Below, one piece after another: positions 29,644 through 30,447 of a stretch of 64,000 nucleotides of DNA. The DNA is taken from the sequence record OR844765; one strand, given 5' to 3'. Source of the DNA: Escherichia phage ECO111 5-P. Every line of letters starts with the position of its first letter. Position 1 is the stretch's first letter. The notes beneath the pieces are model-generated. The model did not search any database and was not told where the DNA came from. It saw only the letters and a list, made by a program, of their open reading frames with translations. The position numbers and the translations under genes are program-made.

Positions 29644-29987
29644 CCAAAATGTTGGCTTTAATAGTTGGCTTGGTTTCATTTAATGCTCTTGCTAATACTA
29701 CATATACTGATGTAACGGAGTATACAAACAGAACGGCGTCTGATTATTGTGGTAAAAGTCAAGAGTGTAAAGTAGATTTTTCACAAAAATTGTTATATGC
29801 GTATAAAGACGGAGAAAAAGATGGGGCGTCTAGTAGGTTCAAGGCGTCTACCTTAATTAAAAGATACTATAAAAAATGGCAAATATTAGAATGCTCGGTG
29901 GCGGAACCTAAAGATAAGGCAGCATGCAATTCTATGGTGGACCGTCTAGTTGACTCTTATAATAGAGGACTTGCAGCAAGTGATTAA
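29640..29987 (+). CDS. secreted small cysteine-containing protein
   Basis: Signal peptide MTKMLALIVGLVSFNALA; 4 Cys. Confidence 0.5.
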   Translation: MTKMLALIVGLVSFNALANTTYTDVTEYTNRTASDYCGKSQECKVDFSQKLLYAYKDGEKDGASSRFKASTLIKRYYKKWQILECSVAEPKDKAACNSMVDRLVDSYNRGLAASD

Positions 29988-30447
29988 AAACTATATCAAG
30001 GGCGATATTGTCGCCCTGTTTTCTAAAGGTAATAATATTGCTCATGGGTGTAATTGTTTTCATACAATGGGCGCTGGTGTAGCAGGACAATTAGCAAAGG
30101 CTTATCCAAAAATTCTGGAAGCCGATAAACTTCAAACTGAATTCGGAGACGAGTCTAAACTCGGGACTTATTCGGTTTATGAAAAATATTTTAAGACCCA
30201 TAAAGCTTATTGCTTTAATCTTTATACACAGTTTGAGCCGGGACCTAATTTTGAGTACTCTGCTTTAATGAATTGTATAATAGAATTAAATGAATTCGGA
30301 AAGAATAAGATAACAAAGCCTGTAATTTATATGCCAAGAATTGGTGCAGGTATTGGTGGTGGAAACTGGGATGTCATCGAAGAGATTTTAGATACGTATT
30401 CCACTAAACTAGAAATTGTGATTGTTGATTGGGAACCATTATTATGA
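29980..30447 (+). CDS. macrodomain protein (TARG1/DarG-like), start uncertain
   Basis: KGDIVALFSKGNNIAHGCNCFHTMGAGVAGQLAKAYP and MPRIGAGIGGGNWDVIEEIL parallel the TARG1-type macrodomain; no in-frame ATG (GTG 29980 or TTG 29950/29971). Confidence 0.55.
   Translation: MIKNYIKGDIVALFSKGNNIAHGCNCFHTMGAGVAGQLAKAYPKILEADKLQTEFGDESKLGTYSVYEKYFKTHKAYCFNLYTQFEPGPNFEYSALMNCIIELNEFGKNKITKPVIYMPRIGAGIGGGNWDVIEEILDTYSTKLEIVIVDWEPLL

Follow-up and report, generated by a model that had tools for sequence, protein, structure and literature searches.

The gene at positions 29980-30447 (+) of the window, i.e. the 64,000-nucleotide stretch of Escherichia phage ECO111 5-P (OR844765) analysed here, is the tk.4/adfM orthologue of a Mosigvirus-like T-even phage. 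Its product belongs with high confidence to the ALC1-like macrodomains and probably reverses the ADP-ribosylation of phage DNA by DarT2, using a Gln-type catalysis. An anti-DarTG2 role of the T4 orthologue has already been reported. What our sequence comparisons add is an invariant glutamine, Gln84, in place of the catalytic lysine, the recognition of Adpp as the closest characterised relative, and the assignment of PhiKZ AdfM to a separate lineage.

The tk.4/adfM gene starts at a GTG codon

An earlier, sequence-only reading of the window had described an open reading frame at 29950..30447 (+) and quoted two peptides from it; the frame is indeed present and contains both. It had also pointed out that the gene lacks an ATG start and proposed either GTG 29980 or a TTG. 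We retained the GTG, which lines up with the ATG of T4 tk.4 (MIVKYIKGD vs V/MIKNYIKGD), and discarded TTG 29950. In an alignment of 57 homologues (58 sequences in all, hereafter A1), 57/57 homologues begin at the GTG column, the annotated coding sequence of relatives in GenBank is 468 nt long, and divergent homologues match the 165-aa frame only from residue 11. The segment added mechanically by the TTG (29950..29979, +) is not conserved, and it lies outside the gene and inside the vs coding sequence. The gene thus encodes 155 aa and ends with TGA; the first in-frame ATG corresponds to residue 30 of this protein (M30 in HTMGAG). With a homologue in 2799 phage records, it is far beyond chance.

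Starting from the GTG, the gene shares its first 8 nt with the end of vs (GTGATTAA), and its stop codon runs into the start of tk.3 (ATGA). A putative Shine-Dalgarno element, GAGGA (29965..29969, +), is located 10 nt upstream of the GTG, and the same GAGGA precedes the tk.4 ATG in T4. Judging from the sequence, the overlap of the tk.4 start with the vs stop is likely to reflect translational coupling.

The gene lies in the T4 order of genes

Upstream and in the same orientation (28634..29987, +) we found regB (28634-29092), vs.1 (29101-29643) and vs (29640-29987), identified by Pfam (REGB_T4 and a weak SLT match) and by the annotation of T4 and moskry, and arranged as in T4. The two Sec-signal proteins previously noticed upstream of the gene are vs.1 and vs, whose N-termini are hydrophobic and resemble signal peptides. 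Downstream (30444..31606, +) are the co-oriented genes tk.3 (DUF7202), tk.2 and tk.1 (both DUF7438) and tk, encoding thymidine kinase, assigned by Pfam and T4 synteny. The order regB-vs.1-vs-tk.4-tk.3-tk.2-tk.1-tk is identical to that of T4. No DarT-like domain was detected by Pfam in the nine flanking proteins.

A scan of 27800-32300 for promoters was uninformative, returning 17 sites vs 17.2 expected by shuffling. A terminator-like scan picked out a stable hairpin, AGGGCGAT-ATT-GTCGCCCT, of about -13 kcal/mol in codons 7-13 (29999..30017, +). When homologues were compared by fold and identity, the hairpin was present in T4 and in KMB42, whose tk.4 allele is divergent (58% identity), and absent from Karamvirus and Klebsiella phage homologues; a role as a conserved regulatory element has no support beyond Tequatrovirus and Mosigvirus.

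Orthology with T4 tk.4 and the role reported for the T4 gene

The protein is 83.9% identical to T4 Tk.4 over all 155 residues and its gene occupies the same position between vs and tk.3, which places it in the T4 Tk.4/AdfM orthologous group. The sequence-only reading knew of no macrodomain in T4; this is false, as the gene is T4 tk.4 itself, for which a match to the A1pp/macro domain dates from 2006. In November 2025, a HIDEN-SEQ preprint reported tk.4 as the single hit on a DarTG2 host; a clean T4 tk.4 knockout was sensitised to DarTG2 and the gene was renamed adfM, for anti-DarT factor Macrodomain (bioRxiv 10.1101/2025.11.20.689424). The counter-DarT function first proposed for the window gene is therefore supported by the DarTG2-sensitive knockout of an 84% identical orthologue at the same locus. 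Previously, all Tevenvirinae tested, RB69 relatives included, had been found resistant to DarTG2, for a reason then unknown (PMC11257639). The T2 Tk.4 protein has been detected in infected cells.

We infer that the allele of the window protects against DarTG2 as T4 tk.4 does. The T4 evidence comes from a preprint and concerns a protein 16% different from that of the window, which counts against our explanation.

The Tk.4 protein is an ALC1-like macrodomain

The protein scores 28.1 bits with Pfam Macro (PF01661; cutoff 22), matches phrog_335 with an E-value of 8e-67, and its AF2 model (pLDDT 94.8, pTM 0.90) displays the three-layer alpha/beta/alpha fold of the macrodomain superfamily. By both sequence and structure it is nearer to the ALC1-like class (TARG1, DarG, SCO6735/BT1257, Poa1p) than to the MacroD, macroH2A and PARG types. 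The profile and structure searches against TARG1 and DarG that had been suggested for this protein do recover the macro fold: the best Foldseek match is human TARG1 (4j5r, 4.4e-10) and the TARG1 profile matches with an E-value of 2.4e-16. In NCBIfam and PADLOC, only DarG models match, and only by their macro part. Many tk.4 records in GenBank are named "macro domain protein" or "phosphatase".

A glutamine occupies the position of the catalytic lysine

Active-site residues were assigned from alignments only, and their conservation was counted in A1. The substrate-binding loop carries the motif H22-G-C-N25-C26 (30043..30057, +), in which H22 and C26 are invariant and G23, C24 and N25 are at least 90% conserved. 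H22 and N25 correspond to H24 and N27 of SCO6735, H22 to H23 of Poa1p, and N25 to N23 of PhiKZ AdfM, whose mutation lowers activity (PMC13309987). In the strand N80-L-Y82-T-Q84 (30217..30231, +), N80, Y82 and Q84 are invariant in 58/58 sequences. By column correspondence, Q84 stands where TARG1 (K84) and DarG (K80) have their catalytic lysine and where SCO6735 has Gln85. Q84 is followed by an 8-residue loop, FEPGPNFE, and then Y93 (30232..30258, +); loop lengths in 16 phage homologues and an alignment with SCO6735/BT1257 indicate that this short loop sets the T4-type proteins apart from the long-loop Adpp and SCO6735/BT1257 types. The diphosphate-binding loop P119-R-I-G-A-G-I-G-G-G-N-W130 (30334..30369, +) aligns with MPRIGCGLDRLQW of TARG1 and PPLGxGNGGLxW of DarG; P119, I121, G122 and G124 are invariant, and the position of TARG1 D125 is held by G126.

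Thus, the TARG1 motifs recognised by the sequence-only reading (the VKGD strand, the AH..MGAG loop and the MPRIGxG loop) do align, in profile as well as multiple alignments, but its lysine-containing strand is not the catalytic one: the KGD lysine is not catalytic, the lysine position of TARG1 and DarG is Gln84, and TARG1 D125 is a glycine. The absence of the DarG/TARG1 lysine counts against a de-ADP-ribosylating activity on DNA. In SCO6735, Gln85 is essential for the cleavage of thymidine-ADPr, the Q85A and Q85E forms being inactive, and this enzyme performs better than DarG and TARG1 on DarT-modified DNA (PMC9411070). The analogy with SCO6735 is partial, because the identity is 23% and the longer mobile loop is missing. 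We also considered the isoelectric point as an indication of DNA binding, but it is not discriminating, since the DNA enzyme PhiKZ gp104 has a pI of 5.05 vs 5.6 for the window protein.

Relationship with ADP-ribose-1''-phosphate phosphatases

Of the relatives with known biochemistry, the nearest acts as an ADPR-1''-phosphate phosphatase and not as a DNA glycohydrolase, which also counts against our explanation. It is represented by the Achelous protein (37.6% identity, E 1e-23), which shares 98.7% identity with Adpp of Vibrio phage Gary, an enzyme with biochemical proof of its function. Tk.4 could accordingly be primarily a phosphatase of the Adpp/Poa1p kind, converting ADPR-1''P, supplied for instance by aRES-type NADases or as an RNA-repair by-product, into ADPR. 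The label of phrog_335, 'phosphatase', goes in this direction, and yeast Poa1p is among the best sequence and fold matches. Moreover, Tk.4 shares the HxCNC motif with Poa1p (HSCNC; mutated residues H23 and S30) and with Adpp (HQCNC). Poa1p H23 has a conserved counterpart in H22, and T29 stands at the position of S30.

However, Adpp works only within the Adps-Adpp-Namat (NARP1-AP) operon. By tblastn we found no similarity to Adps or Namat in the whole window, and the annotations of T4 and moskry show neither gene in the vicinity of tk.4. The motifs differ as well: Adpp-type proteins have HQ(C/A)NC, YGQY and a loop of 12-15 residues, whereas T4-type proteins have HGCNC, YTQ (YTQF) and the 8-residue loop. 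These signatures differ in 16/16 loci compared; the NARP1-linked one was derived from 3 loci and is provisional because the sample is small. In addition, the phenotype of the T4 tk.4 knockout is specific to DarTG2. The lack of NARP1, together with the different motifs and loop length, makes a main role as an Adpp unlikely.

How the Tk.4 protein may protect against DarTG2

The explanation that we favour is enzymatic removal of ADP-ribose from DNA. During infection, the phage would make a stand-alone macrodomain protein of 155 aa, which would bind the ADP-ribose put by the host DarT2 on thymidines of single-stranded phage DNA and hydrolyse the bond between ribose and thymine. This would restore replicable DNA and allow the phage to grow on hosts carrying DarTG2. 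Catalysis would differ from the lysine-based one of DarG and TARG1. On the model of SCO6735 Gln85, the invariant Gln84 at the lysine position may hold the substrate and an activated water in place, with help from the conserved His22/Asn25 loop and from the glycine-rich loop that binds the diphosphate. DNA modified by DarT2 is freed of its ADP-ribose in vitro by the macrodomain of a different phage (PMC13309987), and the T4 preprint itself grades enzymatic removal by the T4 protein as something that 'seems likely' (bioRxiv 10.1101/2025.11.20.689424).

Protection could also be mainly non-catalytic, the protein binding and inhibiting DarT2 or shielding ADP-ribosylated sites. Catalytically dead SCO6735 (Q85A), DarG (K80A) and TARG1 (K84A) inhibit DarT in vitro, SCO6735 most strongly (PMC9411070); dead SCO6735 blocks DarT by binding, so that protection need not be enzymatic. 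AdfA, the other T-even anti-DarT factor, inhibits DarT directly, and the canonical catalytic lysine is missing from Tk.4. Against this, phages of distant lineages have the ADP-ribose-binding and active-site set (H22, N25, Q84 and the glycine loops) unchanged, a pattern that favours conservation of a small-molecule chemistry; Tk.4 does not have the C-terminal DarT-binding domain of DarG, and its relatives PhiKZ AdfM and SCO6735 do work by catalysis. We regard a mainly non-catalytic protection as very unlikely, and enzymatic de-ADP-ribosylation of DNA as its probable basis.

A further question is whether DNA is the main substrate, since action against DarT2 could be only a part, or a by-product, of the work of an enzyme directed to another ADP-ribose conjugate, such as O-acetyl-ADP-ribose or ADP-ribosylated protein or RNA (made by host-defence ARTs of the CmdT-like kind, by uracil ADP-ribosylation or by the phage's own Alt/ModA/ModB). 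ALC1-like macrodomains are promiscuous, and SCO6735 also strips ADPr from PARP1 (PMC9411070). TARG1 carries the annotation O-acetyl-ADPr deacetylase, and homologues of Tk.4 are often named 'O-acetyl-ADP-ribose deacetylase' in databases. Papers on the reversal of RNA ADP-ribosylation appear to cite SCO6735-type enzymes. The spread over 2799 phage records is also wider than DarTG2 pressure alone might explain. On the other hand, DarTG2 is so far the only condition in which T4 tk.4 has a phenotype. Besides, arginine is the residue modified by T4 Alt, ModA and ModB; enzymes of the ARH/DraG type reverse arginine-ADPr, which ALC1-like macrodomains are not known to do. Another main substrate appears highly improbable to us, and thymidine-linked ADP-ribose on phage DNA remains the favoured one.

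Comparison with known systems

DarG itself could be ruled out by catalytic residue, domain architecture and operon context. Compared with its macrodomain (T. aquaticus 5M31/5M3E, M. tuberculosis 5M3I), the Tk.4 protein shows about 21-25% identity and has Gln84 (NLYTQ) where DarG has K80 (FPTK motif). The DarG model NF048014 gives 31.9 bits vs a cutoff of 250, with positions 4-146 of 338 matched. DarG is paired with darT in an operon, whereas the neighbours of tk.4 are vs and tk.3. Neither is the protein a TARG1/OARD1 proper: at 24-28% identity to the TARG1 sequence, which we verified against PDB 2lgr, the catalytic dyad K84/D125 is replaced by Q84/G126.

SCO6735 of S. coelicolor and BT1257 of B. 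thetaiotaomicron (23-29% identity) agree with Tk.4 in their key residues, since Q84, H22 and N25 stand in the columns of SCO6735 Q85, H24 and N27, but not in the mobile loop, which is QFEPGPNFEY here vs QHGMKTGSKGAPVRY in SCO6735. In these two proteins this loop is about 5 residues longer than in DarG and TARG1, whose loop length Tk.4 shares. They also have HVCND where Tk.4 has HGCNC, and a GWGKG lysine where Tk.4 has A32.

The Adpp of Vibrio phage Gary (NARP1-AP; bioRxiv 10.64898/2026.01.28.702374) falls in the same PHROG and resembles Tk.4 by the HxCNC motif and the glutamine at the lysine position. Its gene lies between Adps and Namat, whereas tk.4 has no NARP1 partner, and Tk.4 has neither this operon context nor the NARP1-linked signature. 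The label 'phosphatase' of this PHROG lumps at least two functions. PhiKZ gp104, also called AdfM, is likewise a stand-alone phage macrodomain acting against DarTG2 with a conserved catalytic-site Asn (Cell Rep 2026, PMC13309987). However, it matches M. tuberculosis DarG at 9e-25, keeps the lysine (FPTKDNW), is imported into the phage nucleus and gives only a 23-residue local match with the window protein (E 0.005). It represents a different, Lys-type lineage, so that the name AdfM now covers two unrelated lineages of phage macrodomains.

The T4-type protein is thus no simple 'orphan DarG': it is without the catalytic lysine, has a Gln as in SCO6735 and is nearest to the Adpp phosphatases; the published DarG-like chemistry is an assumption. 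We tentatively propose, as a possibility that we hold to be rather doubtful, that T4-type AdfM is a third mechanistic solution among ALC1-like proteins, of a short-loop Gln type, sister to Adpp and not derived from DarG, and able to cut thymidine-ADPr with no lysine in the catalytic role. Such a protein may even be bifunctional (DNA glycohydrolase and ADPR-1''P phosphatase), with a specificity set by loop length, YTQ/YGQ and HG/HQ. If this were true, the cassette-like swaps of tk.4 alleles among otherwise near-identical Tequatroviruses would be the trace of an arms race against varied DarT2 toxins.

DarTG stops phages via DNA ADP-ribosylation, and the countermeasures of T-even phages are layered (AdfA, AdfN, AdfM); tk.4 of the window is the AdfM layer of an RB69-like phage. 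The allele, known from its sequence and carried by a Mosigvirus, differs from T4 Tk.4 by 25 substitutions, by a GTG instead of an ATG start and by an overlap with vs of 8 nt instead of 4 nt. It has the locus in common with T4 Tk.4, and likewise the invariant residues, among them HGCNC, NLYTQ and PRIGAGIG-GNW.

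The macrodomain gene and its neighbours

The ORF list holds a 165-aa ORF at 29950-30447 (+), in which both peptides quoted in the sequence-only reading are present. That reading offered GTG 29980 or a TTG as the start. We observed that GTG 29980 pairs with the ATG of T4 tk.4 (T4 MIVKYIKGD; window V/MIKNYIKGD), that the N-terminus of all homologues falls in this column of the 58-sequence family alignment, and that the CDS length annotated in GenBank relatives is 468 nt. In addition, the GTG overlaps the stop of vs (GTGATTAA) and has a GAGGA 10 nt 5' of it, and the stop codon of the gene shares ATGA with the start of tk.3. 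These observations place the gene at 29980-30447, with a product of 155 aa. The TTG at 29950 was rejected, since the alignment, the annotated CDSs and the matches in divergent phages, which begin only at residue 11 of the 165-aa ORF, point to the GTG. This is clearly a real gene: homologues occur in 2799 phage records, and AlphaFold2, run on the family alignment, gave a model with a mean pLDDT of 94.8 and a pTM of 0.90.

Over this block the window shows 97-98.6% identity to T-even phages of the genus Mosigvirus (RB69-like), among them PNJ-6 and moskry, and its gene order (regB, vs.1, vs, macrodomain gene, tk.3, tk.2, tk.1, tk, rI.1, rI) is that of T4. The protein is 83.9% identical to T4 Tk.4 over all 155 residues and is a member of the Tk.4/AdfM orthologous group; the earlier statement that T4 has no macrodomain was therefore wrong. 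Indeed, the A1pp (macro) domain was matched to tk.4 orthologues in 2006 (PMC1524935), and many GenBank records name the gene 'macro domain protein', 'phosphatase' or 'O-acetyl-ADP-ribose deacetylase'. The moskry record (MN850651; loci L002 and L004) propagates annotation errors: vs.1 and other ORFs are named 'endoribonuclease RegB', the 70-aa tk.3 'putative ABC transporter ATP-binding protein', and a long series of ORFs in the nrdC region 'thioredoxin'.

Upstream, vs.1 (29101-29643) and vs (29640-29987) have the signal-peptide-like N-termini claimed for them (MRKALLAGLFALSLSAHS... and MTKMLALIVGLVSFNALA..., with Kyte-Doolittle maxima of 2.4 and 2.7). The SLT transglycosylase match of vs.1 is weak and falls below the cutoff (E 0.0013). 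For Vs, the 'valyl-tRNA synthetase modifier', an export signal is odd; vs was reported to be conditionally important in minimal medium (HIDEN-SEQ preprint, bioRxiv 10.1101/2025.11.20.689424). Downstream, tk.3 (30444-30656) matches DUF7202. The adjacent tk.2 (30647-30838; E 4e-19) and tk.1 (30835-31023; E 7e-15) both match DUF7438 and are therefore tandem paralogues.

Fold and active site

The match to Pfam Macro (PF01661) exceeds the gathering score and spans essentially the whole domain, and PHROGs assigned the protein to phrog_335, labelled 'phosphatase' (E 8e-67). When the PDB was searched with the single sequence, we found BT1257 (2fg1/2afc; 6e-11), yeast Poa1p (1.5e-8) and SCO6735 (5e3b), with TARG1 and DarG at about 1e-3. 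The family profile matched BT1257 (7.5e-17), TARG1 (2.4e-16), SCO6735 (1.9e-14), M. tuberculosis DarG (2.8e-13) and Poa1p (5e-13), the MacroD-type coronavirus Mac1 reaching only 4e-4. In the Foldseek ranking, Poa1p, BT1257 and DarG came after the top hit, TARG1 (4.4e-10). The TARG1/DarG-type fold first proposed is correct: the protein belongs to the macrodomain superfamily and to its ALC1-like class.

Reference sequences were rebuilt from PDB alignments (TARG1 being confirmed against 2lgr) and aligned to the family profile and to one another. The column of the catalytic lysine (TARG1 K84; DarG K80, FPTKKHW; PhiKZ gp104, FPTKDNW) is occupied by Gln84 (NLYTQF), which, like N80 and Y82, is invariant in 58/58 family members. 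The lysine of the KGD motif, picked out initially, is indeed a conserved residue of the N-terminal strand, but the catalytic position is that of Gln84. Gly126 stands at the position of TARG1 Asp125. BT1257 and SCO6735 likewise have Gln in place of the lysine. SCO6735 outpaces DarG and TARG1 in cleaving thymidine-linked ADP-ribose, for which a water-mediated mechanism was proposed; its activity is abolished by Q85A and by Q85E (PMC9411070). Its His24 and Asn27 have counterparts in His22 and Asn25, the latter also matching PhiKZ N23. From these alignments, a Gln-type, lysine-independent hydrolysis would be the most likely chemistry. Inhibition of DarT without catalysis is possible because catalytically dead forms of SCO6735, DarG and TARG1 each inhibit the toxin in vitro (PMC9411070); however, catalysis is favoured by the invariance of the active-site residues and by the lack of DarG's C-terminal DarT-binding domain.

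Probable role against DarT and variation at tk.4

In a 2024 study every tested Tevenvirinae phage, RB69 and relatives included, resisted DarTG2 even without AdfA and AdfN, and the authors concluded that a further factor must exist (PMC11257639). In the HIDEN-SEQ preprint (November 2025; bioRxiv 10.1101/2025.11.20.689424), no T4 gene other than tk.4 was depleted on a DarTG2 host, and T4 became sensitive to DarTG2 when the gene was cleanly knocked out; the authors noted that Tk.4 resembles DarG of M. tuberculosis in structure, renamed the gene adfM, and wrote only that ADP-ribose 'seems likely' to be removed enzymatically. PhiKZ gp104, independently named AdfM, strips DarT2-made ADP-ribose from a TNTC oligonucleotide in vitro, with lowered activity in N23A (PMC13309987). 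These publications therefore support the suggestion of a phage DarG-like hydrolase as DarT counter-defence, hydrolysis itself being only likely for T4. The role of the orthologue (2025), like the fold, is already known. Other ADP-ribose conjugates are plausible substrates given the promiscuity of ALC1-like enzymes, but no phenotype supports them.

We compared T4 (locus L001, 2351-3120), KMB42 (L005) and the window (29830-30600). Between T4 and KMB42, both Tequatrovirus, the flanks are 97-100% identical in nucleotides, against 37-77% for most of the tk.4 body; high identity runs on for the first 30 nt or so of the gene and resumes past its end. The Mosigvirus window has a T4-type allele, yet its upstream vs is about 70% identical to T4; the last ~100 nt of tk.4 and the start of tk.3 are 100% identical. 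The gene behaves like a swappable cassette, and such replacement of alleles is consistent with an arms-race locus.

A perfect 8-bp hairpin (AGGGCGAT/ATT/GTCGCCCT, then GTTTTCT; about -13 kcal/mol) lies at 29999-30017 (+), in codons 7-13. T4 carries the same nucleotides, as does KMB42 with a protein of only 58% overall identity, and the hairpin is absent from the more distant Karamvirus and Klebsiella-phage homologues. Pairing of the host sRNA ArcZ with T2 tk.4 mRNA was reported in a preprint.

Relation to Adpp and other named macrodomains

A serious rival is that the protein is an ADPR-1''-phosphate phosphatase like Poa1p and Adpp. According to a January 2026 preprint, the Poa1p-like Adpp dephosphorylates ADPR-1''-phosphate, enabling NARP1 to rebuild NAD+ against aRES defence (bioRxiv 10.64898/2026.01.28.702374). 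The Achelous homologue, located in a NARP1/Adpp operon and 98.7% identical to Gary Adpp, is closer to the window protein (37.6% identity, E 1e-23) than any other biochemically characterised protein, and shares its Gln at the lysine position. Against this, Adps and Namat have no match anywhere in the 64-kb window, and the motifs are of T4 type. Among 16 phage homologues compared with their flanks, a small sample that makes the signature provisional, the three genes next to NARP1 (Achelous, phiPsa300, Pa-U) share HQ(C/A)NC, YGQY and, following the Gln, a loop of 12-15 residues. Nine stand-alone genes (the window and T4 genes plus seven from other T-even genera, Felixounavirus, Vequintavirus, Kuttervirus and Aeromonas phage 65) have H-G-(C/A)-N-C, YTQ and an 8-residue loop, with no NARP1 genes in the fetched flanks. 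Four stand-alone loci fit poorly: Meroveus (11-residue loop), K571 (QGCNC, 11-residue loop), and SF1-1 (L017, 4941-5414) and PBES02 (L018, 4968-5510), which are Adpp-like (HCCNC, YGQY, 13-14-residue loops) with neither Adps nor Namat inside 5 kb. The last two may represent NAD+ salvage that is unlinked or differently arranged. In SF1-1 the gene upstream is annotated 'putative orotate phosphoribosyltransferase'. The motif and loop comparison and the absence of Adps and Namat therefore point to the T4/AdfM-type subclade for the window gene, on this provisional signature; its product may have secondary phosphatase activity.

In Aeromonas phage LAh_9 (L014, 4505-5312), the NARP1-adjacent macrodomain gene seems to be split into two overlapping annotated CDSs, 'phosphoesterase' and 'hypothetical', and matches by tblastn in two pieces, which suggests a frameshift or sequencing error.

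DarG proper was rejected: the gene has no Lys, second domain or darT neighbour, and the DarG model gave 31.9 bits against a 250-bit cutoff, matching only profile positions 4-146 of 338. TARG1 proper was rejected, its K/D dyad being absent. The SCO6735 subclass has a 'mobile loop' about 5 residues longer (PMC9411070), an extra length not seen here. The PhiKZ lineage was also rejected; gp104 matches the window protein over only 23 residues (E 0.005) and DarG with E 9e-25. One name, AdfM, thus covers two unrelated phage lineages, the T4 Tk.4 type, whose catalytic position is a Gln, and the Lys-bearing PhiKZ gp104 type. The PhiKZ paper in Cell Reports (PMC13309987) states that no macrodomain Adf had previously been reported, so the name was evidently coined twice independently. 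The mechanistic interest is that the T4-type AdfM lacks the lysine that 'DarG-like' implies, and that the characterised protein nearest to it is a phosphatase.
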